Source of the DNA: Gemmatimonadota bacterium | GTDB lineage: Bacteria > Gemmatimonadota > Gemmatimonadetes > Longimicrobiales > Gaopeijiaceae | Direction of reading: 5' to 3' | Assembly (NCBI GenBank): GCA_022822325.1 | Contig: JAJEBW010000021.1 | Location: forward strand, 40,280-104,279 | Length of the DNA stretch: 64,000 bases | Shown: in pieces, positions 11,253-49,853 of the stretch | How the letters are laid out: each line of letters begins with the position of its first letter | Numbering within the stretch: position 1 is the stretch's first letter | Translations under genes and position numbers: made by a program | The notes under the pieces: model-generated | Told to the model about the DNA's origin: nothing | The model's database searches: none | Seen by the model: the letters and a program-made list of their open reading frames with translations, nothing else

Positions 11253-11398
11253 GGGCGGATCTCTGCTTTTCGGCGGATGGCGTGTGGTTCGCTGGCGATG
11301 GCGTGCCCGTGAACTGGTGCGGGCGGGGTTGCTCCCCGCGCCCACTTCCGCAATGATGTAGTCCCCTGATAACCGCGATTCGGATCCCAGAGGCGAAT

Positions 11399-16100: not shown

Positions 16101-17767
16101 GGACGATCGCGACCGAGCTGGCACGGCGGGCGCGGGAGTTACCCGACCGGCTCTTTGTGCGCTTTCCCGACGCCGACCTGAGCTACCGGCAGTTCGAGGC
16201 CCGCACCCGTGCGCTGGCCGCGGGGCTGACACGCTGGCGGGTGGGCGCTCCGATGGTCCCCACTCTCCTTCCCAACTGCGCCGATGCGGCCCTCTTCTGG
16301 TTTGCCGCCAACCATGCCGGGCGGGTGTGGGCGCCGCTGAACACCGAATTCCGCGGCCGGGGACTGGCCCACGCGATCAACCTCACCGGCTCGCGCGATC
16401 TGGTGGTGGACGCCTCGATGCTGGAGCCGGTCCTGGAGATCCGGGATCGCCTGCAGCATGTCGAGCGCCTCATCGTGCGAGAGGGCGACGCGGGCAAGGC
16501 AGGCGACGGGGCCCGCGACATCGGCCCGCACGCAAGGCCGGCGACCGCCGCCGCCGCCCACCCCCTCCCCACCCTTCCCCTGGAGGCCCTCTTCCTGGAG
16601 GACGACGGCGCGGATCCGATCCTTCCCGCGCGCGAATCGGCGCCCTCCCTCCTCATCTATACTTCCGGCACCACCGGCGTCTCGAAGGCCTGCGAGCTCT
16701 CGCACCGGTACGTTCTGGGCCACGGCGCGATCCTTGCCGAGGCAACCGGAATGCGCATGGGCGATGTCCTCTTCTGCCCCTACCCGATCTTCCACTGGGA
16801 CGCCACGATCGGCACGATCGCGCCCGCGCTGCACCTGGGGATCGCCGCCGTCGTGACCGAGCGCTTCAGCGTCTCGCGCTTCTGGAGCGATGTGCGGCGC
16901 TATGGCGTCACCATCTTCGATTTCATGGGCGCCACCCTCACCTTTCTGCACAAGCAGCCGGCCCGGCCCGACGACGCCGACAATCCCGCCCGTCTGGGTT
17001 GGGGTGTGCCGATGCCCGCCTTCAAAGAGGACTTCGAGAGGCGTTTCGGCGTCGCGCTGATCGAGGGCTACGGCTCGACCGAGGTGGGAATCGTGGTCTG
17101 CCAGGAACCGGGCGCAGCCTACCCCCCGGGCTCGTGCGGCCGCTGTTCCCCCACCTTCCGGCTGCGCATCGTGGATGAAAACGACCGGACGCTGCCCCCC
17201 GGCGAGATCGGCGAGATCGTGGTGCGCGCGGCCGCCCCCGAGGACCGTCATTTGTTGCTGAACGGCTACTACGGGATGGAGTCGCTCAACCGCGAGGCCT
17301 TCCGCGGCGGCTGGTTCCACACCGGCGACCTGGGCCGGCTCGACGAGGCGGGCAACCTGTACTTCGAGGGACGCAGCAAGGACGCGATCCGGCGGCGGGG
17401 CGAGAACATTTCGGCCTTCGAGATCGAGCAGGTGATCGAGGCGCACCCGGCCGTGCTCGAGGTGGCGGCCTACGGCTTGCCAAGCGAGTTTACCGAGGAG
17501 GAGGTGGCGGCTTCGGTTGTGCCCAGACCCGGCCATGCCCTCGATGCCGACGATCTGCGCAAGTATTGCGAGGGACGAATGGCGCGCTACATGGTGCCCG
17601 TGCATCTGCGGTTCCTGAAGGAGTTGCCGCGGACGCCCACGGAAAAGGTGGAGAAGGCGGCGCTGAGGCGGCGGCATCTGCGCGCGCTGGGCGGAGAGCC
17701 GGGCGGGGCCGCGAAGGTAGCCGGACGACGGGCGGCAGCCGAAGGGACAGGGGCGCGAGAGCGATGA
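16097..17767 (+). CDS. AMP-dependent acyl-CoA synthetase/ligase
   Basis: GTG 16097 overlaps the MaoC stop (GTGA). Motifs YTSGTTGVSKA, GWFHTGDLG, PRTPTEKVEK. Confidence 0.9.
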   Translation: MRTIATELARRARELPDRLFVRFPDADLSYRQFEARTRALAAGLTRWRVGAPMVPTLLPNCADAALFWFAANHAGRVWAPLNTEFRGRGLAHAINLTGSRDLVVDASMLEPVLEIRDRLQHVERLIVREGDAGKAGDGARDIGPHARPATAAAAHPLPTLPLEALFLEDDGADPILPARESAPSLLIYTSGTTGVSKACELSHRYVLGHGAILAEATGMRMGDVLFCPYPIFHWDATIGTIAPALHLGIAAVVTERFSVSRFWSDVRRYGVTIFDFMGATLTFLHKQPARPDDADNPARLGWGVPMPAFKEDFERRFGVALIEGYGSTEVGIVVCQEPGAAYPPGSCGRCSPTFRLRIVDENDRTLPPGEIGEIVVRAAAPEDRHLLLNGYYGMESLNREAFRGGWFHTGDLGRLDEAGNLYFEGRSKDAIRRRGENISAFEIEQVIEAHPAVLEVAAYGLPSEFTEEEVAASVVPRPGHALDADDLRKYCEGRMARYMVPVHLRFLKELPRTPTEKVEKAALRRRHLRALGGEPGGAAKVAGRRAAAEGTGARER

Positions 17768-18411
17768 GGAGGGGGGCCGGGACGATGGCGGGGGCTCGGT
17801 GGACCGCGTTTGCGAGCGTGGCCGCGCTTGTGGCGGGGTGGCCGGGGGGGGCGGGGGGGCAGGCCTCGGTGGGGTTCATCGGCGGCGCGTCGATCTCGAG
17901 CTTTACCGGAAGCGGCGCAGTCGATGTGATGGCCGGCGTGGGGCCGCTCTTCGGGCTCTCGGGCGCGGTCCCGCTGGGCGAGGCGCTGGCGCTGCGGCCC
18001 GAACTGTACCTCGTTCGCAAGGGCGCTCATGTAAACACCCGTTTGGGGGACTTCGGGGCCGGGCCCAGGAAGGAGTTCACGCTTGGCTATCTGCAGATGC
18101 CGCTGTTGCTGGAGTTGCGAACGGGATCGGACGGGGCGATTCGCCCGCGTCTCTTCGGCGGCGTCGCGGCCGGGCTGCTCGTCCAGTGCAAGCTGGAGGA
18201 CGACCGTTGCGAACAGATCGCCGAGATCAACTATCGCCGGGCGGATCTGGGGGTGATGGTGGGCGGAGAGCTGGAATGGCGAAGCTGGTCGCTCGGCGCC
18301 CGCTACGAGGCGGCGGTGCGGACCTTCGAGGTCTCCACCCCGGGGGCCGAGCTGTACAATGGGGCGCTCTCGGTCACGCTCCGCTTCCAGCCGCGAAGAA
18401 CTCCGCAATGA
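17764..18411 (+). CDS. Small outer-membrane beta-barrel protein (porin-family / OmpW-like size)
   Basis: ATG 17764 overlaps the ligase stop (ATGA). Signal peptide present. Alternating-hydrophobicity strands. Ends in an aromatic-rich terminal strand ...LSVTLRF followed by QPRRTPQ. Confidence 0.7.
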   Translation: MRRGAGTMAGARWTAFASVAALVAGWPGGAGGQASVGFIGGASISSFTGSGAVDVMAGVGPLFGLSGAVPLGEALALRPELYLVRKGAHVNTRLGDFGAGPRKEFTLGYLQMPLLLELRTGSDGAIRPRLFGGVAAGLLVQCKLEDDRCEQIAEINYRRADLGVMVGGELEWRSWSLGARYEAAVRTFEVSTPGAELYNGALSVTLRFQPRRTPQ

Positions 18412-19114
18412 ACCCGGTGGCGGGGGAGGCCGCCAGCTCCTCCGGCGCTCCCCGCTGCACGATCTCTCCCCCTTCGAGGGCGTAGACGCGGGGCGCTCCC
18501 AGGGCGAACACGTCGCGGGCATCGTGCGTGACCACGATCGCCGGGCGGCCTCCGTCCAGCAGGCGCCGCGCCAGACTCGCGCGCAGCGTGCGCCGGGCGG
18601 CCGGGTCCATGGCGGCCAGCGGTTCATCGAGAAGAAGGATTGCGGGCCGGGCAATGAGGGCGCGGGCAAGGGCGACGCGTTGCTTCTCCCCACCGGACAG
18701 CGTGGCGGGGTAGCGGTTCGCGATGGCTTCGCATCCCGTCTCGGCGAGGGCGTCCCGGGCCAGCCGCCGTCGCTCGACCCTGGAAGGCGCGGCCGCGGCC
18801 GGAATCCCGAAGGCCACATTGCCGGCGACGGTCAGGTGCGGAAAGAGACCGTAGCCCTGCGGCACATACCCCACCCGGCGCGCCTCCGGGGGAAGCGCGA
18901 TCTCCCCTTTCGCGTCGAAGAGAACCGCGTCCCCCACCTCGATCCGGCCCAATTCCGGCGCGCGTGCGCCCACGATGGCGCGCAGCAGGGTGGTCTTCCC
19001 CGATCCATTCGGCCCGATCACCACGACCGGCGCGGCATCGCCCCGCATCCGGGCCGCGACGCGAAAGTCGCCCGCCCGCACCACGATATCGACCCGCCAG
19101 GAGGCCGCGCTCAC
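18374..19114 (-). CDS. modC: Molybdate ABC transporter ATP-binding protein
   Basis: C-terminal part of track ORF 18374..20053. GTG 19114 overlaps the modB stop (GTGA). Walker [10 protein letters not shown], signature [15 protein letters not shown], Walker B LLLDEP. Confidence 0.85.
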
Positions 19115-25392: not shown

Positions 25393-26300
25393 AACGATCC
25401 CCCGCCTCCGCTTCGCCCCGAATGGCAACGGGCCCGCCTCCGGAATTCGAGGTGCGCCCGGTGCGCGCGCGCGAAGAGTTCATCGCCTGCGTCGAGCTTC
25501 AGCGCGACACCTGGGGCCGTTCCTTCTCCGATGTCGTGCCGCTTAGCATGCTCCAGATCACCGCCCGGATGAAGGGTGTGGTGACCGGCGCATTCGCCTC
25601 CGACGGCGCCCTGCTCGGCTTTGTCTATGGGGTGACCGGACTGCGGCGCGGCGAGTTGGCGCACTGGTCGCACATGCTGGCGGTACGGCCCGAGGCCCGC
25701 GACCGCGGAATCGGGCGGCGGCTCAAGCTGGCCCAGAAGGAAGAGCTGCGCGCCGTCGGGGTGCGGACGATGTACTGGACCTACGATCCGCTGGTCGCGC
25801 GCAACGCCCACCTCAACCTCAATCTGCTGGGCGCCGAGGTCGATGAATTCGTGCCGAACATGTACGGCGAATCGGACAGCCTCCTGCACCAGTTGGGCAC
25901 CGATCGCTTCATTGTAAGGTGGGATCTGACGGGGGAAGCAACCCCTTCCCGGCCACCGCCCCACGCGCCCGGGCTCGCTTCCCATCCGGCCCCGCTCCTC
26001 TGGGCGCCGGGAACGCCCGGGGCGGAGTGGCCGCCGAACGAGGGTGCGGACGCCCCTTCCAGCGCCGGCCACCCGCCCGCCGCCGATCAACCTTCGCCGC
26101 CCGCGGGCGACCCTCCGGACGCGATCGCGGTCAGAATTCCGCGCGACATCGAGGTCGTCGAGGCGCGTTCCGTCCGGGAGGCGCTCGCCTGGCGCCACTC
26201 CACCCGGGCCGCCTTCGTCCGCTTCCTTCCCCTTTACCGCATCCGCGCATTCACCCGCGGCGACCGCCACGGCGCCTACCTGCTCGCGCGCGCCCCCTGA
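25389..26300 (+). CDS. GNAT family N-acyltransferase with Pro-rich insert
   Basis: Track ORF 25218..26300, start at ATG 25389 (MKRSPAS...). Acyl-CoA motif A-like HMLAVRPEARDRGIGRRLKLAQK. Divergent from the GntR gene. Confidence 0.7.
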   Translation: MKRSPASASPRMATGPPPEFEVRPVRAREEFIACVELQRDTWGRSFSDVVPLSMLQITARMKGVVTGAFASDGALLGFVYGVTGLRRGELAHWSHMLAVRPEARDRGIGRRLKLAQKEELRAVGVRTMYWTYDPLVARNAHLNLNLLGAEVDEFVPNMYGESDSLLHQLGTDRFIVRWDLTGEATPSRPPPHAPGLASHPAPLLWAPGTPGAEWPPNEGADAPSSAGHPPAADQPSPPAGDPPDAIAVRIPRDIEVVEARSVREALAWRHSTRAAFVRFLPLYRIRAFTRGDRHGAYLLARAP

Positions 26301-26382
26301 CCCCCGCGGCGCGCCGCCTTCCCCAATTCGCCTTCGCCACTCTCCGTTGCCCCCCAGAGTCACCACCCAGGAGTTTCCTCTC

Positions 26383-28479
26383 ATGAGACCACGGCCCGCT
26401 CACCCGACCGCTCACGCCACCGCCCTCGCGGCCACCCTCGCCGCCCTCGCCACCGCCGCCCTTCCCCCCACCGCCCTCGCTCAGAGCGAGATGGCCGTCC
26501 TCACCGCCGAGGACGTCTTCGACCTGGAGTACGTCAGCGAGCCGCGGATGTCGCCCGATGGCGACCGGATCGTCTTCGTGCGCGAATGGGCCGATCCCCA
26601 CACCGACCGCCGCTTCGCCAATCTCTGGATCATGAATGCGGACGGCTCCGATCAGCGCCCCCTCACCTCCGGGAAGCAATCCGACACCTGGCCCCGCTGG
26701 TCGCCCGACGGAGGCAGGCTGCTCTACCTCTCCGACCTCTCCGGGTCGTCGCAGATTCACATTCGCTGGATGGACACCGGGGCCACCAACCAGATCACCA
26801 ATCTCGCGCAGCCTCCGCGCGTTCCCGCCTGGTCGCCCGACGGTTCGCGGATCGTCTACTCCGCCTTCGTGTCCGATCCCGGCTTGCAGCTCATCTCGAT
26901 GCCGAGCCCCCCGGAGGGCGCCGAGTGGGCCGAACCCGCCCGCGTGATCGACGAACTCGTCCACCGCTTCGACGGCGCCGGCGATCTCGACCATGGCTTC
27001 ACCCACCTCTTCGTCATTCCCTCGGAGGGAGGCGCCCCGCGGCAGCTCACGAGCGGCGACTTCCATCATGGCGGCTACGTGGGGCGTTCGGGTGCGGGCA
27101 GGCCGGTCTGGTCCGCCGACGGCAACTCGGTTCTCATCTCCGCCAATCGCCACCCGGACGGGGAGCTGGAGAATCGCAACACCGAGGTCTACGAGATTTC
27201 GCTCGACGGCCGGATCCGCGCGCTGACCGATCGCGAGGGACCCGACGGCGGCGTGGCCGCATCGCCCGACGGCCGCTGGATCGCCTACGCCGGCTACGAC
27301 GACCGCTACCAGGGTTACCAGGTGACGGGATTGTACATGGCCAATCGCGACGGATCGGGGGCGCGCCAGGTCGCGGCGGAGCTCGACCGTTCGGTGGGAG
27401 GGCTGGCGTGGTCGCCCAACTCGGAGCGGCTCTACTTCTCCTACGCCGACCACGGCAACACGAAGATCGCCTGGGTCGAGCCCGGCAGCGACGAGGTTCA
27501 CATCGCGGCCGACGACATGGGCGGGACCGGTTCGGCCTATGGCGGGGGAAGCTTCTCGGTTGGCCCCGGCGGGACGATTGCCTTCACCCACTCCACGCCC
27601 ACCGTGCTGAGCGAGGTGGCGGTCGCGCGGGATGGCGCGGGGGCGCGGGTGCTGACCGCCGTCAACGACGATGTGCTCGCGCACCGGACCCTGGGCGAGG
27701 TGGAGGAGATCCGGTGGCCCTCGTCGCACGACGGGCTCGAGATGCAGGGATGGATCATCAAGCCGCCCGGATTCGATCCTGCGCGGCGCTATCCCCTCAT
27801 CCTGGAGATTCACGGGGGACCCTTCGCCAACTACGGCGACCGCTTCGACGTCGAGAAGCAGGCGATGGCCTCTGCGGGCTACGTCGTTCTCTACACCAAT
27901 CCCAGGGGAAGCACCAGCTACGGCGAAGAGTTCGGCAATCTCATCCACCACGCCTATCCCGGCAACGACTTCCACGATCTTGACTCGGGGGTTGACGCGG
28001 TCGTTGCACTGGGCTATGTGGACCCGGACCAGCTTTACATAACCGGTGGCAGCGGCGGGGGTGTGCTGTCGTCCTGGTCGATCGGCAAGACCGACCGCTA
28101 CCGCGCGGCCGCCGTCCTCTACCCCGTCATCAACTGGTACAGCTTCGCGGTCAGCTCCGACATTCCGATCACCGTGGCGAAGTACTGGTTCCCGGCCATG
28201 CCCTGGGATGATCCCGAGCACTACATGTCGCGCTCGCCGATCTCGCTCGTCGGCAATGTGACGACGCCCACCATGGTGATGACCGGCGTGGAGGACTACC
28301 GCACGCCGATGTCGGAATCGGACCAGTACTACCAGGCGCTCAAGCTGAAGGGGGTGGAGGCTGTGCTGGTCAAGGTTCCCGGCGAGCCGCATGGAATCCG
28401 CGTCCGCCCGAGCCACTTCATGCAGAAGATCAAGTACATCGTGGGCTGGTTCGACCGGTACCGGGGGATGGCGTCGTGA
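26383..28479 (+). CDS. S9 family serine peptidase, paralogue of 720..2822
   Basis: Track ORF 26044..28479, start at ATG 26383 (MRPRPAHP..., signal peptide ...ALAQ). SPDG propeller repeats. Nucleophile GGSGGG. Collinear with the first S9 protein along its whole length. Confidence 0.9.
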   Translation: MRPRPAHPTAHATALAATLAALATAALPPTALAQSEMAVLTAEDVFDLEYVSEPRMSPDGDRIVFVREWADPHTDRRFANLWIMNADGSDQRPLTSGKQSDTWPRWSPDGGRLLYLSDLSGSSQIHIRWMDTGATNQITNLAQPPRVPAWSPDGSRIVYSAFVSDPGLQLISMPSPPEGAEWAEPARVIDELVHRFDGAGDLDHGFTHLFVIPSEGGAPRQLTSGDFHHGGYVGRSGAGRPVWSADGNSVLISANRHPDGELENRNTEVYEISLDGRIRALTDREGPDGGVAASPDGRWIAYAGYDDRYQGYQVTGLYMANRDGSGARQVAAELDRSVGGLAWSPNSERLYFSYADHGNTKIAWVEPGSDEVHIAADDMGGTGSAYGGGSFSVGPGGTIAFTHSTPTVLSEVAVARDGAGARVLTAVNDDVLAHRTLGEVEEIRWPSSHDGLEMQGWIIKPPGFDPARRYPLILEIHGGPFANYGDRFDVEKQAMASAGYVVLYTNPRGSTSYGEEFGNLIHHAYPGNDFHDLDSGVDAVVALGYVDPDQLYITGGSGGGVLSSWSIGKTDRYRAAAVLYPVINWYSFAVSSDIPITVAKYWFPAMPWDDPEHYMSRSPISLVGNVTTPTMVMTGVEDYRTPMSESDQYYQALKLKGVEAVLVKVPGEPHGIRVRPSHFMQKIKYIVGWFDRYRGMAS

Positions 28480-40391: not shown

Positions 40392-42410
40392 CTACCCCGG
40401 CAACCGCAGCGCCACCAGCCTTCCCGGCCGCCCCACCTGCACCACCACATGCTGCTGCCCTTCGTGGCTGTAGGTCATCATGCCGTACTGGCCCGCGCCG
40501 GGCATCTCGACCGTGCCGACGCGCTCGCCGGTTCGCTTGTCCCATGCATTGAGCACCGGCGGTCCGTTGGCGCCCTCGGTCGTGTAGAGCAGATCGCCCG
40601 CCACCATCTGAATCGAGAGTCCGCCGCCGCCCGCGCGCGATAGATCCACCCCCTGCGCGGCCGGGTGATTGCGGACATTTTCGGCGACTTCGCCGATCGG
40701 GATCCACCAGAGGCGCTCGCCGGTGTTCATGTCGTAGGCCGAGAGACGGTTGTAGGGCGGTTTGGGGATCGGCAATCCCTGCACCCGGGGCAGTCCGCCG
40801 CCCGGGCCCGCGACCCAATCGGCTATTGTGATGCCCGTTGTCGCAGGATCGTCGGGATCGTCGGCGTCGGCACCCGGGCCCACTCGTCCGCCGCTACAGT
40901 TGCGCCGGTGCGAAGCGTAGAGGATCCCGGTCGTGGGGTCCAGGGTGGCCGGATGGGTGATGTTGAGTCCGCCGTAGCAGCGAATGTTCTCGGCGAAGGG
41001 GCCGTCGTAGCCTGTGTGCAGACGGGGAACGAAGGGTCCGCCGACCCGGTAGCGCGCCAAAATTTCCTTCGCCTCGTCGAAGAGCTCCGGCGCAAAGTCG
41101 ATGATCTGGTCGTCGTCAAGCCCCAGCGGCTCCATCGGCTCGGGCCAGGTGGGAACGGGTTGCGTCGCGGCGGTCCAGTTGCCGGGAACCTCGGTCTGCG
41201 CCACCGGCACCTCCTCGATCGGCCAGACGGGATCGCCGGTCTCGCGGTTGAAGGCGAAGATCAGCCCGGTCTTGGTTGTCTGCACCAGCGCGGGCACGGG
41301 CAACCCATCCACGGTCAGGTCCGCCAGAATCGGAACATTGGGAAGGTCGTAGTTCCACTGGTCGTTGTGCACGATCTGGTAGTGCCAGACGCGTTCGCCG
41401 GTCGACGCCCGAAGCGCGATCACACTGGTCGAGAAGAGATTGTGGCCCGGACGGAAGCCGCCGAAATAGTCGATCGTGGGCGGATTGGTGGGAATATAGA
41501 CGATGCCGCGCTCGTAGTCGGCCGACATCGGCGCCCACGACGACACGTCTCCGGTGTACTCCCAGGCGTCGTTCTCCCACGTCTCGTGTCCAACCTCGCC
41601 CGGCCGCGGAATCACGTGAAACTTCCACCGGTGCTCCCCGGTGCGCGCGTCGAATCCCAGAATGTCGCCCGGCACATTCTCGATCCGCGTCTGGTAGTAG
41701 CCCTGCTCGGCGGAGTTGCCCACCACGACGATGCCATCCACCACAATCGGCGGCGACGACGTGGTGATGTAGCCCAGCTCGCGCGGAATCCCGAAGTCGG
41801 GATCGTAGTTCTCTTCGGCGCCCTCCCAGGGTCCCCAGCCGCTCAGAAGGGGCGGCAGCATGTCCACAACGCCCGTTTCCGGGAAGCCGTCGACAGGTAC
41901 GGGCTGGCCGAAGCCCTCAAGGTGGCGCCCGGTCTTCGCGTCGAGCGCGTGCAGGAAGAAGGCGGGCGAGGTGTAGTAGATGACGCCCCGGCCGTCGATC
42001 TCCCCGTAGGCCACGCCCTTCCCGTAGTTCTGTCGCATCGAGCGTTCCCAGCGCGTGGTGTTGGGCTCGCGGTAGCTCCAGAGCGTCTCGCCCGTTGCCG
42101 GATCGATCGCCGCGACGGTGCGCCGCTGCCCCGCCACCGTGTAGAGGATTCCGTCGATGTAGGTGGGGGTCGATTTCATCTGCTGATCGACGTCGGGGCC
42201 GAAGTTGTCGGCGCGCCAGACCCAGGCCACCTCCAGATCGTTGAAGTTCTCCGCGTTGATCTGGTTGACGGGAGAGAAGCGCGTCCCCCAGGCGTCGGCG
42301 CTCTGGTACCGCCACTCGCCATCCGGATTGCGGCGTTCCTGGGCCGGGAGCGAGGCGGCGAAGGCGAAGGCGATCAGCAGGGTGGGAAGAATGATCGGGT
42401 GCGGGCGCAT
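40392..42410 (-). CDS. PQQ-dependent dehydrogenase (soluble periplasmic quinoprotein, 8-bladed propeller)
   Basis: Track ORF 40392..42548, start at ATG 42410 (MRPHPIILPTLLIAFAFAASLPAQ). N-terminal ...GEWRYQSADAWGTRFSPVNQINAENFNDLEVAW... and repeated W-motifs typical of PQQ enzymes. No cytochrome c domain. Confidence 0.85.
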   Translation of the reverse strand: MRPHPIILPTLLIAFAFAASLPAQERRNPDGEWRYQSADAWGTRFSPVNQINAENFNDLEVAWVWRADNFGPDVDQQMKSTPTYIDGILYTVAGQRRTVAAIDPATGETLWSYREPNTTRWERSMRQNYGKGVAYGEIDGRGVIYYTSPAFFLHALDAKTGRHLEGFGQPVPVDGFPETGVVDMLPPLLSGWGPWEGAEENYDPDFGIPRELGYITTSSPPIVVDGIVVVGNSAEQGYYQTRIENVPGDILGFDARTGEHRWKFHVIPRPGEVGHETWENDAWEYTGDVSSWAPMSADYERGIVYIPTNPPTIDYFGGFRPGHNLFSTSVIALRASTGERVWHYQIVHNDQWNYDLPNVPILADLTVDGLPVPALVQTTKTGLIFAFNRETGDPVWPIEEVPVAQTEVPGNWTAATQPVPTWPEPMEPLGLDDDQIIDFAPELFDEAKEILARYRVGGPFVPRLHTGYDGPFAENIRCYGGLNITHPATLDPTTGILYASHRRNCSGGRVGPGADADDPDDPATTGITIADWVAGPGGGLPRVQGLPIPKPPYNRLSAYDMNTGERLWWIPIGEVAENVRNHPAAQGVDLSRAGGGGLSIQMVAGDLLYTTEGANGPPVLNAWDKRTGERVGTVEMPGAGQYGMMTYSHEGQQHVVVQVGRPGRLVALRLPG

Positions 42411-42621
42411 GACAAGACTCCTGATCGTGGAGCGGGCGTGGGACAGGTCGCTGGCGCAGGTTCGTTGGCGCGGGTGAAGACCGTGTCTGCCAAGGTAGGA
42501 TGGCGGGGCCGGTCGCGCCAAGAAAGGTTGCGCGGCCATGGTTGGCATCCTTGGGGATTGCGCGGGCGGGTGGCGCGAGAAGTGGGGGCTCGCAATCTTG
42601 GGCGCTGAATGGTCGCTGTCG

Positions 42622-42671
42622 CATCGACATCTGCCGCGAGGAGGCCGAAACCATGCTTTCCGCCCGCATCC
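42622..42671 (+). repeat. Copy 1 of a 50-bp direct repeat (30-nt perfect core acatctgccgcgaggaggccgaaaccatgc) containing SD GAGGAGG plus ATG
   Basis: Compared by eye with 46928-46977: 45/50 identical, and core 42627-42656 is identical to 46933-46962. The ATG at 42653 starts the small ORF. Confidence 0.9.
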
Positions 42672-42853
42672 GCCATTTCTCGGAAGCCGGCCTGGAATCC
42701 TCGGAGTGCCGGCGGGCGACGGAGCGCCGGGACCGATTCCACCGGAATGAGCGATACGGCCTCCTTGGCCCGGACCGGCGGCTCGCGTCGCGGCAAGTCG
42801 CCGGATCGCCGCAATCCTGCGGCCCCGTTTGGTTGCGCGAGCGGGTGGAGTGA
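42653..42853 (+). CDS. Small basic protein (66 aa) translationally adjacent to the NirB-like gene
   Basis: GAGGAGG lies 7 nt upstream of the ATG. MLSARIRHFSEAGLESSECRRATERRDRFHRNERYGLLGPDRRLASRQVAGSPQSCGPVWLRERVE. High GC3. Stop is 3 nt before the ATG at 42857. No family recognised. Confidence 0.45.
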   Translation: MLSARIRHFSEAGLESSECRRATERRDRFHRNERYGLLGPDRRLASRQVAGSPQSCGPVWLRERVE

Positions 42854-42856
42854 GCG

Positions 42857-44779
42857 ATGGGACGCATCGTCGTCGTCGGCTTCGGGATGGTTGCGCACCG
42901 GTTTGTGGGACGGCTGCGCGCGCTGGGCGGACTGGACCGGCACAGCGTCACCGTAATTGGCGAGGAGCCCTGTCCGGCCTACGACCGCGTCCACCTCACC
43001 GGCTGGCTCGGGCGCCGCGACCGGAAAGGTCTCGAGCTGCCGATCCGCGACTGGAACGAAGACGAGCGGATTCGGGTGATCACCGGCGATGCGGCAACCT
43101 CGATCAAGCGGGCGGAGAGGCGCGTGGAGACGGCGGCCGGGCGGCGGATTCCCTACGACAAGCTGGTGCTCGCGACCGGTTCGACGCCCATCGTGCCCTC
43201 CATCGCGGGTGTGGACCGCGACGGCGTCTTCGTGTATCGCAGCCTGGAGGATCTGCGGCGCATCCGTGCGCGAGCGGTGGGTGCGACGGCGGTGGGTGAA
43301 GGCGCGGCGGTGGTTGTCGGCGGCGGCCTGCTGGGGATCGAGGCGGCGGCCGCGCTCGGGCGGCTGGGGCTCGACGTCGCGATCGTGGAGAGGGGTCCCC
43401 GGCTCATGGCGCGGCAGTTGAACGAAGTGGCGGCGGCGCTGGTGCGGGAGCAGCTCGAGGATCTGGGGATTCGCACCCTCGCGGCCACGGTCGCGCGGCG
43501 CATCGAGGAGCGCGAGGGACGGCTGGCGATCTCGGTCGCGGGCCGCGCGTCTCCCCTGACCGCCGATCTGGTCGTGATCGCGACGGGCATGCGTCCCAGA
43601 GACGAGCTTGCTGTGGCGTGCAGGCTGGCTGTGGGGACGCGCCCCGGGGGAATCATCGTCAACAACGAACTCCGCACCTCGGATTCCTTCATCTACGCGA
43701 TCGGGGAATGCGCCTGGTACCGCGGCTTCGTCCACGGACAGATCGCTCCCGGGTACGAGATGGCCGACACCCTCGCCGAAGTCATGGCGACCGGGCGGGG
43801 ACGGTTCCGGCCGCGGACCACCGCGACCCGTTTGCGGCTTGAGGGCATCGAGGCATGGGCGCTCGGGGATCCCGCGCTGCTGGGCAGGAATGTCGATTTC
43901 CGGGGCGAGGGCGCCTACCGTCGGATCACCCTGCGCGCCGGACAGATTGTTGCGGCCCGTTCGGTGGGCCCATGGGAGGGGATGGGGGTCGTGCAGGACT
44001 TCATCGAGCGCGCCCGTCCGGTGTGGGAGTGGCAGTTGCGGCGCTTTCGGCGCACCGGCGAGCTGTTGGCGGGACCGGGAAATCTGCCCGTGGCCGAGTG
44101 GCCCGCGTCGGCGCCGGTCTGCAACTGCCTGGCGGTCACGCGCGGGTCGTTGACCGCGGCGATCGAGCGGGGGTGCGCAACGGTGGATTGTCTCGTGGCG
44201 GAAACGGGCGCCTCGACGGTGTGCGGCGCCTGCCTGCCCCGTTTGGCGGAGTTGGCGCGCGATCCGGCGGCAACCGTGTTCGACAGGGGGCGCGGTTGGC
44301 TGCTGGGCACGGCCGCGCTTGCCGCCGCCCTTGCACTCGCCTTCGTCGCCGGTTCCCCGCTGCCCCTGGCGACGAGCTTTGCCGACTTCGGCGCGACCGA
44401 TCTCCTTTACCGCAGCGGAGGCTGGCGGTTGGCGACCGGGTTCACCCTGCTCGCGCTGTTGCTGGGGACGACGGCGCTGTCGCTCAGAAAGCGTTGGCCG
44501 CGCTTGCGCTTTGGCGACACCGCCTCCTGGCGAATCGCGCATGGAGCATTGGCCGCGCTCAGCCTGGTCGTGCTGGTTGCGCACACCGGGCTCCGGCCGG
44601 GATCGGGCATCAACCTGGCGCTGACCTGCGCGCTCCTGACCGCGAGCGTTTTGGGGGCGGCGGCGGCATTGGGATTCGCGGGGCGCCGGGCCCGCCTGAC
44701 CTTCTGGCTCCACCTGATGGCGGTCTGGCCGCTGCCGGTCCTCATCGCCTTCCACATCGTCGCGGCCTTCTACTTCTGA
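42857..44779 (+). CDS. NirB-type NAD(P)H/FAD pyridine-nucleotide-disulfide oxidoreductase with BFD-like [2Fe-2S] domain, fused to a C-terminal 5-TM domain bearing two His-x13-His pairs
   Basis: 640 aa. N-terminus MGRIVVVGFGMVAHRF..., second Rossmann fold AAVVVGGGLLGIEAA, and IYAIGECA are collinear with the first roughly 470 aa of nitrite reductase large subunit. Cys422-x-Cys424...Cys456-xx-Cys459. The sulfite/nitrite-reductase haemoprotein domain is absent and replaced (aa about 481-640, nt 44297-44779) by 5 hydrophobic helices. TM3 carries H562/H576 and TM5 carries H619/H633. Confidence 0.85.
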   Translation: MGRIVVVGFGMVAHRFVGRLRALGGLDRHSVTVIGEEPCPAYDRVHLTGWLGRRDRKGLELPIRDWNEDERIRVITGDAATSIKRAERRVETAAGRRIPYDKLVLATGSTPIVPSIAGVDRDGVFVYRSLEDLRRIRARAVGATAVGEGAAVVVGGGLLGIEAAAALGRLGLDVAIVERGPRLMARQLNEVAAALVREQLEDLGIRTLAATVARRIEEREGRLAISVAGRASPLTADLVVIATGMRPRDELAVACRLAVGTRPGGIIVNNELRTSDSFIYAIGECAWYRGFVHGQIAPGYEMADTLAEVMATGRGRFRPRTTATRLRLEGIEAWALGDPALLGRNVDFRGEGAYRRITLRAGQIVAARSVGPWEGMGVVQDFIERARPVWEWQLRRFRRTGELLAGPGNLPVAEWPASAPVCNCLAVTRGSLTAAIERGCATVDCLVAETGASTVCGACLPRLAELARDPAATVFDRGRGWLLGTAALAAALALAFVAGSPLPLATSFADFGATDLLYRSGGWRLATGFTLLALLLGTTALSLRKRWPRLRFGDTASWRIAHGALAALSLVVLVAHTGLRPGSGINLALTCALLTASVLGAAAALGFAGRRARLTFWLHLMAVWPLPVLIAFHIVAAFYF

Positions 44780-44804
44780 TGGGAGCGCTGCTTCCGACGG
44801 GAAT

Positions 44805-46214
44805 GTGACGATTTCGATGAGAACGCGCCTGTTGACCCCGACACCGTCCTCGGCCGCCGGCCGGTATGCGGCTTCCGGCGGGAACCCGGCGATGACGCGC
44901 GGCGGTCGCTTCTCCCGTCTGTGGCTGATCCTCAGCCTCGCGGCCTGCGTCTATCTCGGCGCGCGGATCGGTGGCGATGACAAGACGCTTTTCATTCCCG
45001 GAGCGATGACCGACGGACATCACCAGATCGAGATGGCCTGCGCAAGCTGTCACACCCCCTTTGGGGGCGTTGCCCAGGCGTCCTGCCTGGTCTGCCACGA
45101 AGCGGAGCTGGCCGAGGCACTCGACGCGCACGGCAACCGCAAGTTCCTCAATCCCCGCAACGCGGTGCAGCTCGAACGACTGGATGTGCGCCGGTGCATC
45201 GTCTGCCACACCGAACACCGCCCCGCGATCACCGGTGAGATGGGAGTGACGCTGCCCCTCGATTACTGCTCCGTCTGCCACGAAAACGTCGCTCGCGTCC
45301 GGCCGTCGCACGAAGGCATGTCCTTCGTCAGTTGCGCCTCGGCCGGCTGTCACAACTTTCACGACAACCGGGCGCTCTACGAGGACTTTTTGCTTGCTCA
45401 TGCGCGCGAACCCTCCGGCGATCCGCCGATGCCCGGCGCCGACCCCCACCCTGCCACCTTTCCCGGCCGCTTCCCGCCGCGCCGTACACCGATCGCAGTG
45501 GAACCGGGAGACCGTCGCTCCCTGACCGCCGCCGACGCCGATGCTCCGGCCGCTTCCGCCAGGGGGGAGTTGGTGGAACGATGGGCGGGATCGGCGCATG
45601 CCCGCGCGGGAATCAACTGCGGCGACTGCCATGGGGCACCCTGGACCGACGATCCCCCCGAAGAGCTGTGCGGCACCTGCCATGTGGAGGAACCGCGGGG
45701 ATTTCGCGCGGGCAAGCACGGCATGCGACTGGCGGCCGGCTTCGGTCCGATGACGCCCGCGCTGGCCCGCCTGCCGATGAAGTCTGAGGCGTCGTCGTTC
45801 GCCCTCGGTTGCGGTTCCTGCCACGATGTCCACGATGTGGATCTGCGCCCCGCTGCGGCCGCTGCCTGCCTGAGCTGTCATGCCGACGAACATTCCGAGT
45901 CATATCCCGCTTCTCCCCACGGACGAAGTTGGGAGAGCGAACTGGCCGGCCTGGGCACGCCCGGCAGCGGGGTAAGTTGCGCATCCTGCCACATGCCGCG
46001 GTTGCAGGAAGGGGATGCCATCCTGGTTCAGCACAATCAGAACGCCAACCTTCGTCCCAACGAGAAGATGATCCGCGAGGTCTGTCTGACCTGCCATTCG
46101 CTCGGGCTGACGATCGACGCGCTGGCCGATCCCGAATCGATCCGCCGCAACTTCCCCGGGCCGCCGGCGCTGCATGTGGAGAGTCTGGAGATGGCGCGGG
46201 CGAGAAGGAGATAG
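44805..46214 (+). CDS. Membrane-anchored multihaem cytochrome c (10 CxxCH plus 1 Cx4CH)
   Basis: 469 aa; alternative start ATG 44892. TM anchor RFSRLWLILSLAACVYLGA. Haem motifs CASCH, CLVCH, CIVCH, CSVCH, CASAGCH, CGDCH, CGTCH, CGSCH, CLSCH, CASCH, CLTCH. Confidence 0.9.
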   Translation: MTISMRTRLLTPTPSSAAGRYAASGGNPAMTRGGRFSRLWLILSLAACVYLGARIGGDDKTLFIPGAMTDGHHQIEMACASCHTPFGGVAQASCLVCHEAELAEALDAHGNRKFLNPRNAVQLERLDVRRCIVCHTEHRPAITGEMGVTLPLDYCSVCHENVARVRPSHEGMSFVSCASAGCHNFHDNRALYEDFLLAHAREPSGDPPMPGADPHPATFPGRFPPRRTPIAVEPGDRRSLTAADADAPAASARGELVERWAGSAHARAGINCGDCHGAPWTDDPPEELCGTCHVEEPRGFRAGKHGMRLAAGFGPMTPALARLPMKSEASSFALGCGSCHDVHDVDLRPAAAAACLSCHADEHSESYPASPHGRSWESELAGLGTPGSGVSCASCHMPRLQEGDAILVQHNQNANLRPNEKMIREVCLTCHSLGLTIDALADPESIRRNFPGPPALHVESLEMARARRR

Positions 46215-46216
46215 CG

Positions 46217-46912
46217 ATGACGAAGGATTCCGTCGTGAGAGGTGGGGGAAGTCCGATGAGCGGGATGGGACGCAGGATCGGTTGGATCGCCTCGCGCATG
46301 CGCCGGGCGCGGCGAGGCGTGGGGATTGGTCGCGCCGCTGCCGCCGCCGGCCTGGTGGTCGCGGGCACGGTCGCGCTGGGCACCTGCGGCCCGAGCGCAT
46401 CCGATGGGGACCTGGAGGAAGGCGGAATCTCGCCGCGGGTGATGGCCGACGCGCTCCACACGGTGATCGAGGCCGACCGCACCATCTACGCCCGCCATGT
46501 CGTGAACCGGCTCCAGGATGAGGAGGGCGTCATCGCCGCGAGCGAGCACTGGCTCGACGACAAGGCGCTGCCGCTGCCCGCGCAGGTCTTCCGGATGGGC
46601 GCCGAGCTGGCCGCCGAGAAGAGCGACGACTTCTACTACGCGCTGATCTCCAAATGGCCGATCAACATCCAGAACGAGCCGCGCACCCCGATGGAGGCGG
46701 AGGGACTGGACAGCCTGGCCGCGGACCCGTCGCGCCCCTTCTACGGAAACGAGACGCTCGCCGGCACCACCTATTTCACAGCCGTTTACCCGGATGTGGC
46801 CGTGGCCGAGGCCTGCGTGACCTGCCACAACGCCCACCGCGACAGCCCGCGCGACGACTTTCGCGTAGGCGAGGTGATGGGGGCGGTGGTGGTGCGCATT
46901 CCGCTACGGTAG
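46217..46912 (+). CDS. DUF3365 (Tll0287-like) c-type haem protein
   Basis: Track ORF 45809..46912, start at ATG 46217, 2 nt after the cytochrome stop. TM/signal segment, then ...VFRMGAELAAEK...TYFTAVYPDVAVAEACVTCHNAHRDSPRDDFRVGEVMGAVVVRIPL, typical of DUF3365. Single CVTCH. Confidence 0.8.
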   Translation: MTKDSVVRGGGSPMSGMGRRIGWIASRMRRARRGVGIGRAAAAAGLVVAGTVALGTCGPSASDGDLEEGGISPRVMADALHTVIEADRTIYARHVVNRLQDEEGVIAASEHWLDDKALPLPAQVFRMGAELAAEKSDDFYYALISKWPINIQNEPRTPMEAEGLDSLAADPSRPFYGNETLAGTTYFTAVYPDVAVAEACVTCHNAHRDSPRDDFRVGEVMGAVVVRIPLR

Positions 46913-46927
46913 CAGTCCGACCGCGCC

Positions 46928-46977
46928 CATCAACATCTGCCGCGAGGAGGCCGAAACCATGCGTTCCGTCTGCGTCC
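46928..46977 (+). repeat. Copy 2 of the 50-bp direct repeat, 15 nt after the DUF3365 stop
   Basis: See copy 1. Same SD-ATG (ATG 46959), but the downstream reading frame is antisense to the aminotransferase gene and diverges from copy 1 after about 19 nt. Confidence 0.9.
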
Positions 46978-47168
46978 CTTCCTGCCGCGTGACGTCAGAG
47001 CCTGGAAGGCCGCGACCGACCTGGGTGGGCCGGGGACTCGTCGGTTGGCCTCTCGCCTCGATGGCCCTCCTCGCGGGTGCCCTCGGGAGATCTGCGGGTG
47101 CGGGTCATGAGGCCCCTGATTGTGGACGCCGACGGAGAACCCTGGAACTGACCGCTGCGCCCGTGCCG

Positions 47169-48341
47169 TTACCGGGCGTCCCGCCACGCCCGCGCCGCCG
47201 CGATCACCCGTCCGATGTCGTTGTCGTCGTTGTAGACGCCGACCGAGAAGCGAAGGGCGCCGCTGCGAATCGCCAGCCGTATTCCCGCCGCCGCGAGATG
47301 ATCGTGCAAGGAATTCATCGCGGGATCGTCGGCGGTGTAGTGCCGGCCGCCGCCGCTCCTGCCAACGCAGACGATGTGGGCCAGGTGGGGACCGGGCGGA
47401 CCGCCGGCAACCGGAAGGCCAAGGTCGCCGAGCGCGTCCGCCAGGGTGGCCGCGAGGCGGCGGAGGTGTCGCTCCACGCGCCCGATTCCCCACTCCTCGA
47501 GCAGAGTCAGCGCCGCGCCCGCCGCCGCCGCGCCCAGATAGTTGTAGTTCCCGACATCGAAGCGAAGCGCGCCCGGACGGTAGCGGAGCGAGCCGACCGT
47601 GTAGGCGGTTTCGTGCGCATCCAGATCGACCCCGAACCGCGCCAGGTGAATCGGCGCCATCCTGTCCGCGACCTCGCGCCGCACATACAAAAAACCGAAG
47701 CCGTACTCGGCCAGGAGACACTTCTGCGTCGCGACCGCCAGGGCGTCGATCCCCAGCTTGCGCACATCGGTCTCCAGCGCCCCGATCGACTGCGCCGCAT
47801 CGACCAGCGTCAGCGCGCCCACCCGCCGCGACGCAGCCGCAATCCCCCTCAGGTCGGTGATGAATCCGGGCGCGAACGAGACGCTGGGAACGGTCACCAG
47901 GCGGGTGCGTTCATCCATGGCCGCGCCCATCGTCCCGACGCAGATGCGACCGTCGACAGGCGCCACCGTTCGCACCTCGATCCCGTGCAGTCTCGCCAGG
48001 TTGTGCCAAAGATAGATGTTGTTGGGATGTTCCACCGCAGGACAGAGCACAACGTTGTCCCCCGCCCTCCAGGGCAGACTCGCGCCGAAGAGATTCAGTC
48101 CCTCGGAGACGTTCTTGACAATCGCGATTTCGTCCGTTCGCGCCCCGATCAGCCGCGCAAAGGACGACCGCGTTCGCTCCACAACGGCTCGCATGGCGTC
48201 CTTGTCGCCGCCGCCCATTCGCATCCGCAGATGGTCCGCGATCGCCGCCCGCACCGGCTCCGCAATGAGCGTTCGCGCCGAAATATCGAGATAGACCTGA
48301 CGCTGCGCCCCGGGGAACAGCGATCGGATTTCCGCGTTCAT
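47169..48341 (-). CDS. Aminotransferase class V-fold PLP-dependent enzyme
   Basis: C-terminal part of track ORF 47169..49013. ATG 48341 (MNAEIRSLFPGAQRQVYLD...) overlaps the upstream transporter stop (ATGA). PLP-Lys region LAVATQKCL. Confidence 0.8.
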   Translation of the reverse strand: MNAEIRSLFPGAQRQVYLDISARTLIAEPVRAAIADHLRMRMGGGDKDAMRAVVERTRSSFARLIGARTDEIAIVKNVSEGLNLFGASLPWRAGDNVVLCPAVEHPNNIYLWHNLARLHGIEVRTVAPVDGRICVGTMGAAMDERTRLVTVPSVSFAPGFITDLRGIAAASRRVGALTLVDAAQSIGALETDVRKLGIDALAVATQKCLLAEYGFGFLYVRREVADRMAPIHLARFGVDLDAHETAYTVGSLRYRPGALRFDVGNYNYLGAAAAGAALTLLEEWGIGRVERHLRRLAATLADALGDLGLPVAGGPPGPHLAHIVCVGRSGGGRHYTADDPAMNSLHDHLAAAGIRLAIRSGALRFSVGVYNDDNDIGRVIAAARAWRDAR

Positions 48342-49600
48342 TCCGACGGTTTCCCTCCATTTGCGTTCCCCCTGTCCGCACGCCGCGTCTCCGAGCGAAC
48401 CACAAGCGCGGTTCCCACCATGTCGCCCATGATGTTCACCGTCGTGTTGCCGATATCGACCAGCCGGTAGATGCCGCCCACGATGGCCGCCACCTCGATC
48501 GGCAGCCCGAACGCCTGCACATGGATGAGCGCGATGACGAATCCCCCGCCGGGAATTCCCCCCGATCCCTCCGACAACAAGAGCCCAAGCAGAAGGATTG
48601 CGACGAAATCGGCGGGCGCGAAGGTCACTCCCGCGGCCTGTGCGGTGAAGATGAAGACCGCGCCCAGCATCGCGGAGGTTCCATCCTTGTTGAGTTGGGC
48701 GCCAAGGGGAAGGGTGAAGGCGTACACGCTGCGGGGAAAGCCAAGTCTTCGCGCCGTCTCCATCCCGACGGTGAGCGACGCCAGGCTGGAAGTTGTGGCC
48801 GCGGTCGTTGCCCACAGCGAACCCGTGCCGCGCAGGAAACGCGCCGGAGAGAAGTCGCCGAAGAAACGCAGCAGCGTCATGTACCCGGCGAAGACGACAA
48901 GTTGCGCGGCCCAGAGACCGCCCAGAAAACGCGCCATCGGCCCGAGCAGCTCGGCTCCGTAGCGCCCCACCGTCACCGCGATGAGAGCGCCGATCCCGAC
49001 TGGCGCCGTCCACAGGATCAGGTGGACGAGACGGCGGAAGAGGCTGGCCAGATCCTCGTAGAGGGTGGCGAGGCGGTCGCGCGCACCGCCCCCGAGCGCC
49101 ATGGTCGCCGCACCGAGAAAGAGCGCCAGGACGACCAGTTGCACCACATTCCCGTCAACGAAGGCGCGAAAGACATTCGTCGGAACCAGACCGAGGAGGA
49201 TTTCGGCGACCGAGGGCGCATCCCCCACCGGCCCCGCCACCGCTTCGGTGAGCTGCATTCCCACACCCGGCGCCAGGAGCGTCGCGGCCCCCATCCCCAG
49301 AGCCAGCGCGACAAGATCCGTCGTCAGGTAGTACCCGACCGTCTTTCCGGCGAGGCGTCCCAGGGTGCGCTTGTCGGCAAGGGCGGTGAGGCCCGCGAGC
49401 AGGTTGAAGAAGACCAGCGGCACGGCCGCCAGCACCAGCAGGGAAATGAAGAGGTCGCCCACCGGCTGCAGCGCGACGACCCGCTCGCCCATGACCGCGC
49501 CCGCCACGATCCCCACCAGCATGCCCGCAAGAATGCGCGTTCCGGGACCGGTGCGGCGCCGACCGTTGCCGCGTTCGGCTTCGGCGGCCGTCGTTGTCAT
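48338..49600 (-). CDS. Dicarboxylate/amino acid:cation symporter (DAACS family)
   Basis: 420 aa. Multiple TM segments. ...GTSAMLGAVFIFTAQA... and ...NIMGDMVGTALV... are typical of GltP/SstT-type carriers. Confidence 0.85.
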   Translation of the reverse strand: MTTTAAEAERGNGRRRTGPGTRILAGMLVGIVAGAVMGERVVALQPVGDLFISLLVLAAVPLVFFNLLAGLTALADKRTLGRLAGKTVGYYLTTDLVALALGMGAATLLAPGVGMQLTEAVAGPVGDAPSVAEILLGLVPTNVFRAFVDGNVVQLVVLALFLGAATMALGGGARDRLATLYEDLASLFRRLVHLILWTAPVGIGALIAVTVGRYGAELLGPMARFLGGLWAAQLVVFAGYMTLLRFFGDFSPARFLRGTGSLWATTAATTSSLASLTVGMETARRLGFPRSVYAFTLPLGAQLNKDGTSAMLGAVFIFTAQAAGVTFAPADFVAILLLGLLLSEGSGGIPGGGFVIALIHVQAFGLPIEVAAIVGGIYRLVDIGNTTVNIMGDMVGTALVVRSETRRADRGNANGGKPSE

Positions 49601-49853
49601 CGCGCGACCGGCCTCACCCTTCCGCCTCTTCCACCCCCATCAGCTCCAGCGCCCGCGCCGGCATCTCGGAGTAGTACGTCCGACGACCGGCCGGTCGGCG
49701 CCCGGGAAGGCCGGCGACCAGCGCAATCGCTTCGCGGCGAATCTGCACTAAGACGTTGTCTCATCCCGACAACTTGCGTCCTGGGCGGAGCACCGGCAAA
49801 CTTCGTGCGGCTTGGCTCCGAACCCGGGGCGCCCCTGAAATCGAGGAGACGAA

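Follow-up and report, generated by a model that had tools for sequence, protein, structure and literature searches.

Short direct repeats that bracket a block of genes are known from several kinds of rearrangement and from at least one kind of regulation. Amplification of an operon for gene dosage followed by partial deletion is a well-known route. Integrative elements, including integrase-less elements that can be mobilised in cis, carry attL and attR, direct repeats of tens of base pairs that border the acquired DNA on either side in a variable chromosomal spot; transposons leave target-site duplications, usually of 2-14 bp, where the inserted DNA ends or directly beyond it; and integron cassettes are compact, repeat-bounded units, typically of ~0.5-1 kb, with a short 5' leader and no recognisable promoter. 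In the par (Fst) type I toxin-antitoxin locus, convergent transcription across DNA direct repeats yields complementary RNAs, and the two RNAs share a terminator (PMC7472228). Analysis of a 64,000-nucleotide stretch of DNA from an uncultured Gemmatimonadota bacterium (contig JAJEBW010000021.1 of assembly GCA_022822325.1, positions 40,280 to 104,279; hereafter the window, in whose coordinates all positions of this locus are given) revealed a pair of 50-bp direct repeats that encloses a three-gene redox module. In its behaviour the pair resembles known rearrangement scars and the direct repeats found around acquired DNA, and it is most likely not a new kind of element.

Copy 1 is CATCGACATCTGCCGCGAGGAGGCCGAAACCATGCTTTCCGCCCGCATCC and copy 2 is CATCAACATCTGCCGCGAGGAGGCCGAAACCATGCGTTCCGTCTGCGTCC; they lie in the same orientation, 4306 bp apart from start to start, agree at 45 of 50 bases and share the exact 30-mer ACATCTGCCGCGAGGAGGCCGAAACCATGC, which forms their core. 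Copy 2 begins 15 nucleotides past the last stop codon of the module (46910-46912), and the preliminary description of a repeat with a 30-nucleotide core that brackets the redox module exactly was thus accurate in its positions, its spacing and its bracketing. We consider it somewhat better than an even chance, at roughly 55%, that the repeat is a neutral structural scar of how the operon arrived or was amplified, with only copy 1 at work. The repeats and the genes between them are as follows.

42622-42671, plus strand: repeat copy 1, the translation initiation region of the leader open reading frame (GAGGAGG at 42638-42644, ATG at 42653, core at 42627-42656)
42653-42853, plus strand: 66-codon orphan leader open reading frame, its start placed at ATG 42653 by the gene caller in both Logan contigs, L001 and L002
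42857-44779, plus strand: membrane-anchored FAD/NAD(P) oxidoreductase with a NirB-N-terminal-like domain, a BFD-type 2Fe-2S domain and about five C-terminal hydrophobic helices
44892-46214, plus strand: multihaem cytochrome c with about 10-11 CxxCH-type motifs and an N-terminal membrane anchor (alternative start at 44805)
46217-46912, plus strand: Tll0287-like (DUF3365) protein, the last gene of the module, with one CxxCH motif and a lipobox-like signal
46928-46977, plus strand: repeat copy 2, in the 256-nucleotide gap between convergent genes (core at 46933-46962, ATG at 46959)

The repeat pair is the best non-coding repeat of the entire window, whose G+C content is 68%. Allowing up to three mismatches, the 30-mer occurred twice in the window and not once in 100 dinucleotide-preserving shuffles, in line with the earlier statement that an exact match of this length is beyond chance, and a search with the 41-mer allowing up to nine substitutions returned solely the two copies from the window and from loci L001-L017. 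When 320 nucleotides around each copy were aligned, the similarity was confined to about 50 nucleotides, with a sharp left edge and a right edge that fades: four of the five mismatches fall within the last 15 nucleotides, the last nine are weaker, and BLAST scoring limits the repeat to 41 nucleotides with two mismatches. No further copy was found in the window together with about 2 kb of the extended source contig, nor in the loci of relatives (L011-L016). A 22-mer of the repeat gave only chance matches in public genome and metagenome collections (two in each, to unrelated sequence and with no similarity in the flanks), and shorter sub-patterns gave no matches in viral collections. A dispersed repeat of the repetitive extragenic palindromic or miniature inverted-repeat transposable element type, which the preliminary description had named as a way in which its reading could fail, was rejected on these grounds, as there are two copies in 64 kb even when loosely matched and chance matches or none in the public collections.

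Two Logan assemblies from different, independent runs (SRR16351688 and SRR16351689) match the window with 100% identity for about 6.5 kb and carry both copies, making a one-off assembly duplication, the other failure foreseen at the outset, unlikely. The two Logan contigs, L001 (window 41955-48521) and L002 (window 41950-48446), end at nearly the same points, inside the PQQ dehydrogenase gene and near the boundary between the aminotransferase and symporter genes, and may reflect co-occurring related strains that diverge there.

Comparison with related genomes, which had been proposed as a check on the 4.3-kb unit, placed the module in the following surroundings.

40392-42410, minus strand: pyrroloquinoline quinone (PQQ)-dependent dehydrogenase of the backbone, its true start fixed by alignment at ATG 42410 (MRPHP...)
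42411-42520, minus strand: conserved upstream region of the PQQ dehydrogenase gene, host backbone, with the motif CC(C)TACC-TTGG
42556-42624, plus strand: fragment of a CapA-like (PGA_cap) pseudogene, DCAGGWREKWGLAILGAEWSLSH against DAGPGWQERWARAAIDAGADLYVAH, residues 250-275 of the relatives' protein
46976-47020, plus strand: candidate C-terminal tail of the CapA-like gene, PFLPRDVRAWKAATD against PLDVRDGRAWWAAPD of L016/P0241, residues 378-393 (tentative)
47169-48341, minus strand: class-V aminotransferase of the backbone, convergent on the module, with 80-82% identity to many Gemmatimonadota orthologues
48338-49600, minus strand: dicarboxylate/amino-acid symporter

In all five relatives' loci the symporter and aminotransferase genes are followed by a convergent CapA-like gene, of capsule synthesis, and four of the five continue with a ferredoxin gene, a molybdopterin oxidoreductase gene and the PQQ dehydrogenase gene. 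In the window the CapA/ferredoxin/molybdopterin block is absent, and the redox module occupies that position on the opposite strand. Upstream of the PQQ dehydrogenase gene, the window is homologous to the relatives as far as about 42520, and it has TGG where the relatives have the TAG stop codon of the molybdopterin oxidoreductase gene. The gene order thus shows the module to be a lineage-specific insert in a conserved Gemmatimonadota backbone. The 4.3-kb unit is absent from the five relatives, which have the CapA-like gene instead; a single copy of the repeat core is likewise missing from the six relatives' loci searched (L011-L016). The nearest relatives of the backbone are distant (59% identity at third codon positions of the aminotransferase gene), which leaves arguments from an empty site and from dating weak.

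Remnants of the CapA-like gene, the right-hand one tentative, lie at the outer edges of the repeats. The left fragment was found within the 104 nucleotides between the backbone boundary and copy 1, on the expected strand, and stops at the first codon of copy 1. Of 12000 random 104-nucleotide segments taken from the window, just 9 reached its score (p ~7.5e-4), and the match holds for seven orthologues; in a whole-window tblastn search it was among the top 10 for five of six orthologues and 34th for the sixth, and with the family hidden Markov model it ranked fourth of 618 matches in the six-frame translated window. No remnants of the ferredoxin or molybdopterin oxidoreductase genes were found in the left flank. 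The candidate tail on the right starts at the last bases of copy 2 and ties for the best Smith-Waterman score in the window, with p ~0.003 solely for the two closest CapA-only orthologues. Between the two flanks about 100 CapA codons (about 276-377) are missing, the right flank being tentative, and the CapA N-terminus, the ferredoxin gene and the molybdopterin oxidoreductase gene are likewise lost. Judged by these alignments, the 4356 bp from copy 1 through copy 2 form an insert within a CapA-like pseudogene and carry a direct repeat at either end, with the right edge placed tentatively. The repeat itself has no similarity to CapA or to the translation starts of the relatives' CapA genes, and an origin of the repeat from either was rejected for that reason.

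Copy 1 has the anatomy of a translation start. The repeat covers positions -31 to about +10/+18 relative to the start codon, with GAGGAGG as Shine-Dalgarno (SD) sequence, an 8-nucleotide spacer and ATG, and in our judgement its extent is roughly that of a ribosome footprint. Both copies folded less stably as RNA than shuffled sequence (z = +1.1 for copy 1 and +2.5 for copy 2), as would be expected of an open initiation region. The gene caller placed a start at the ATG of copy 1, in agreement with the earlier proposal that copy 1 supplies the SD sequence and start codon of the module's first gene, with the correction that this "first gene" is an orphan upstream open reading frame (ORF) of 66 codons without homologues. 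Its codon-position G+C (0.72/0.58/0.81) is coding-like, and its predicted peptide is hydrophilic and arginine-rich, with no Pfam or NCBIfam match and no real homologue among 1.84 billion representative proteins. The ORF ends in GAG TGA GCG ATG (42851-42859), in frame and 4 nucleotides before the oxidoreductase ATG (the gap being TGA GCG), which suggests translational coupling; alternatively, the junction could be that of a split or readthrough N-terminal extension.

Copy 2 keeps the same start anatomy with nothing coding-like behind it. The ORF that opens at its ATG (46959) runs for 503 codons, antisense through the aminotransferase gene, and the first 210 nucleotides have non-coding-like codon-position G+C (0.73/0.71/0.67). 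Read off the sequence, the copies differ at four positions past the ATG, every one of them non-synonymous, and therefore no shared peptide appears to be under conservation. No promoter-like or terminator-like sites were found in 42300-47300. Rfam models found nothing in the window at the gathering score, and nothing in 42350-47250 even at E <= 1, leading us to reject a known structured RNA (riboswitch, leader or small RNA), and neither the copies nor the gap between the convergent genes contained outstanding RNA structure, the folds being weaker than those of shuffled sequence.

No other protein exceeds 55% identity to those of the module, the closest homologues of the oxidoreductase standing at 55%, and the three genes together look, from their domain content, like an uncharacterised module for export of electrons from NAD(P)H to the periplasm. 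The three-gene unit is intact in three other lineages with unrelated neighbourhoods (L003, 8001-11868; L004, 3385-7223; L006, 8001-11864), and the records that carry the block are labelled Gemmatimonadota, Verrucomicrobiota and Planctomycetota, with some neighbourhoods partly defence- or mobile-like. On plasmids, generic similarity to the NirB N-terminus was all that was found, and plasmid-borne relatives were rejected. At the other three module loci there was no flanking direct repeat and no conserved or related leader or upstream ORF, indicating that the repeat architecture is not a conserved regulatory design. Two candidates were accordingly set aside: a flanking-repeat design conserved across module loci, of which none was found, and a conserved leader peptide, since the 66-residue ORF is an orphan and the upstream ORFs at the other module loci are unrelated to it. 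The usual annotation of the module's first gene is "nitrite reductase (NADH) large subunit". Its product here is nevertheless without the C-terminal half of NirB, and its score falls far short of the NirB cut-off. The module is widespread, usually mislabelled and uncharacterised.

We propose that copy 1 is a functioning ribosome-binding site (RBS) and the start of a short upstream ORF, which probably feeds ribosomes into the three-gene redox operon because its stop codon lies 4 nucleotides before the oxidoreductase ATG. Copy 2 would be the first 41-50 nucleotides of a second, head-to-tail 4306-bp unit, truncated at the junction with host DNA, and the operon as a whole would be foreign to this Gemmatimonadota backbone. 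Two routes could have led to this arrangement. By the first, which amounts to terminal redundancy, the incoming DNA would have been tandem or circular and slightly longer than one unit; by the second, the unit would have been duplicated in place, after which a single deletion took away CapA codons ~276-377 along with what remained of the second unit. We prefer the first route because it does not need the edge of the unit to coincide with the edge of the insert, and the shared left edge fits an arriving fragment of more than one unit better than a later duplication in place. Illegitimate recombination would have joined the operon inside a CapA-like gene that was already dying, with about 100 CapA codons lost in that event or to a later deletion that took the remainder of the second unit as well; illegitimate joining is favoured over site-specific integration because target codons are missing and no recombinase was found.

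The pattern of similarity around the copies fits this proposal in several respects. The copies stand exactly one unit apart in the same orientation, the second directly after the end of the unit, and homology stops abruptly at a novel junction, with a candidate host remnant from 46976, as in the remnant of a tandem duplication or of terminal redundancy. The left boundary is sharp, the loss of similarity is abrupt, and nothing further of a second unit follows copy 2, behind which no coding-like ORF lies. The divergence of the module proteins (identity of 55% or less) contrasts with the 80-82% identity of the aminotransferase orthologues. The locus differs from textbook remnants in that merely 41-50 nucleotides of the second unit are left and that neither a tandem array nor a donor was found. 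The preliminary description had taken copy 2 for the decapitated 5' end of a second leader gene; we retain the idea of a second-copy remnant, with the difference that the head is kept and the body gone, so that the remnant is truncated and not decapitated. It had also listed a tandem-duplication scar, a deletion remnant, att-like ends and a shared cis-regulatory element as possible origins. The position of the copies at the ends of the insert and the CapA remnants favour the first two, which make up one family with the truncated second copy; the third lacks a recombinase, dyad symmetry and a core in the target, and the fourth receives no support from the other loci that carry the same module.

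Several observations weigh against a neutral scar. The part of copy 2 with the SD sequence and ATG has one mismatch in 35 nucleotides, as against four in the next 15 (hypergeometric p ~0.02), and this unevenness could reflect constraint or gene conversion acting on copy 2 and not neutral decay; the same pattern would also arise from constraint on copy 1 alone, or from a true repeat of no more than 41 nucleotides. The unit starts and ends within a combined spacer of 46 nucleotides, a very tidy bracketing that survivorship of intact operons explains but that a cassette mechanism explains more naturally. The candidate CapA tail on the right receives no support from the family hidden Markov model, nor from the other orthologues, whose tails are different. 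Finally, no donor, tandem array or empty site was found.

Among the alternatives, we regard as unlikely that the repeats are the attL and attR of a circularisable, integrase-less cassette, which would form a 4306-bp circle through the 30-41-bp core with a recombinase supplied in trans or with RecA. Such a cassette would account for repeats at the very ends of the inserted DNA that exactly bracket a complete, promoterless-looking operon, and the same three-gene module recurs elsewhere, where its neighbourhoods are unrelated and in part defence- or mobile-like. Relatives also vary in the interval from the aminotransferase gene to the CapA-like gene, as a variable spot would: every relative differs just downstream of the aminotransferase gene, where L011 has an AT-rich gene of 343 codons (10195-11291), L018 a CarboxypepD_reg gene (3244-4130) and L016 nothing, and the contigs of two relatives (L013 and L014) end just there. 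The spot looks like a local insertion hot spot. The resemblance to integrative elements ends with these features. Pfam scans of the module genes and of the neighbours checked (31-61 kb) gave no integrase, recombinase or transposase, no transfer RNA gene or other conserved target is involved, and the core has neither dyad symmetry nor a hairpin. Neither the CapA genes nor the loci of the relatives (six loci, L011-L016, from distant relatives) contain the core, and public collections gave chance matches only. The flanking CapA fragments are about 100 codons apart, with the right flank tentative, whereas site-specific integration would have left them contiguous, and the other module loci have no flanking repeats.

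A bolder version, which we think quite unlikely, holds that the 4306-bp unit is a new kind of integrase-less, promoterless operon cassette that uses its own ribosome-binding site as the joining sequence and circularises and re-inserts through the 30-41-bp core. If true, a cassette joined at its RBS would explain why the NirB-like, multihaem cytochrome and Tll0287-like trio is found intact in unrelated neighbourhoods across phyla. In being compact, repeat-bounded, led by a short 5' leader and without a recognisable promoter, the unit recalls an integron cassette, but its repeat is not an imperfect palindrome, forms no hairpin and, by inspection, contains no RYYYAAC/GTTRRRY cores; there is no IntI gene, and the unit has three genes over 4.3 kb. 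The repeats share with the target-site duplications of transposons their position immediately outside or at the ends of inserted DNA, yet at 41-50 bp they are longer than these usually are, they are not derived from the target, and they come with no terminal inverted repeats and no transposase.

Another proposal, which we find improbable, is that copy 2 works as a second RBS or as a decoy in the 3' untranslated region of the operon. As a second RBS it would supply ribosomes to read-through transcripts that enter the aminotransferase gene in antisense; as a decoy it would titrate a factor that binds the SD sequence of copy 1. The SD sequence, 8-nucleotide spacer and ATG of copy 2 are perfectly preserved, the weak folding of both copies would leave them accessible, and no terminator was detected past the last gene. 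The ORF downstream of copy 2, in contrast, is a typical shadow frame of high-G+C DNA, with no coding signal and no stop codon in the gap; no homologous arrangement was found elsewhere, and no factor of this kind is known.

It is likewise improbable, in our view, that copy 2 is the source of a trans-antisense regulator, a putative minus-strand RNA that, as a perfect complement to 30-41 nucleotides of the module RBS, would block translation. Such an RNA could derive from the 3' end of the aminotransferase/symporter messenger RNA or from a promoter of its own. The minus-strand aminotransferase gene reads towards copy 2 from 191 nucleotides away with no intrinsic terminator detected between them, the repeat spans just the part of an initiation region in which antisense pairing blocks ribosomes, and its SD/ATG part is better conserved than the rest. 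The par (Fst) locus provides a precedent, in that one of its direct repeats, DRa and DRb, lies over the initiation region while the second is placed for a complementary RNA from the opposite strand (PMC7472228). In par, however, the repeats sit in one small locus, whereas the copies here are 4.3 kb apart; no bidirectional terminator was found, opposite-strand transcription is putative from gene orientation, and the leader peptide, being hydrophilic and arginine-rich, does not resemble a toxin-like membrane peptide. The lack of promoter-like and terminator-like sites, of an Rfam match at E <= 1 and of outstanding intergenic structure also speaks against a regulatory RNA, as does the absence of the arrangement from the other module loci.

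A chance match or an assembly artefact is a negligible prospect given the empty shuffles, the base-for-base concurrence of three assemblies and the five differences and dissimilar downstream sequences of the copies, which a collapsed or duplicated assembly path would not yield.

In sum, the repeat lacks what defines att sites, integron attC sites, transposon target duplications, dispersed repeats, par-type loci or any Rfam family. Functional repeats, whether as cassette ends, antisense source or decoy RBS, would imply a more interesting mechanism, which no finding here requires. Read as a structural scar, the locus is a clean, datable case of a complete respiratory-type operon grafted into a conserved neighbourhood of an uncultured Gemmatimonadota lineage, with the boundaries of the insert resolved to about 15 nucleotides, and its terminal repeat would record the form of the incoming DNA, which, being longer than one unit, would have been tandem or circular. 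RecA needs roughly 25-30 bp of identity, and the 30 bp of perfect direct identity could allow a rare, RecA-dependent and precise loss of the whole operon that leaves one repeat copy. Such a possible low-frequency loss matters for reading the presence or absence of the module among strains.

Several minor observations concern the surroundings of the module. A non-coding motif, TAGCGCGAC...CCCTACCATTGGGGTGAC...CCACGA-CAGGAGTC-ATG, is kept upstream of the PQQ dehydrogenase gene in all relatives (L016, ~6983-7048; L011, ~18406-18469; L015, ~17212-17276; L012, ~14290-14355) and may be a promoter or operator; in the window a 41-nucleotide insertion separates it from the SD sequence of that gene. On the other side, relatives have a gene for a protein of 547-570 residues without a Pfam domain between a tetratricopeptide repeat gene and the symporter gene (L011, 6138-7793; L013, 6121-7764; L015, 5833-7482); the window has about 250 nucleotides there (49601-49853), and this gene was therefore also lost in this lineage. 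Within the convergent gap, a 37-codon minus-strand ORF with an ATG start (46995-47108) shares its frame with the end of the aminotransferase gene and is suggested only by a trend in third-position G+C; high third-position G+C runs for about 140 nucleotides beyond the aminotransferase stop codon, which may be left over from a longer C-terminus or be due to chance. A weak similarity of 20-31 nucleotides between 42559-42578 and 42834-42853, of which a third copy lies inside the oxidoreductase gene, was judged to be GC-rich chance. Elsewhere in the window, an inverted repeat of 489 nucleotides with 75% complementarity (1062-1550 and 27655-28143) corresponds to paralogous prolyl-oligopeptidase (S9)/PD40 beta-propeller genes on opposite strands (720-2897 and 26044-28479).

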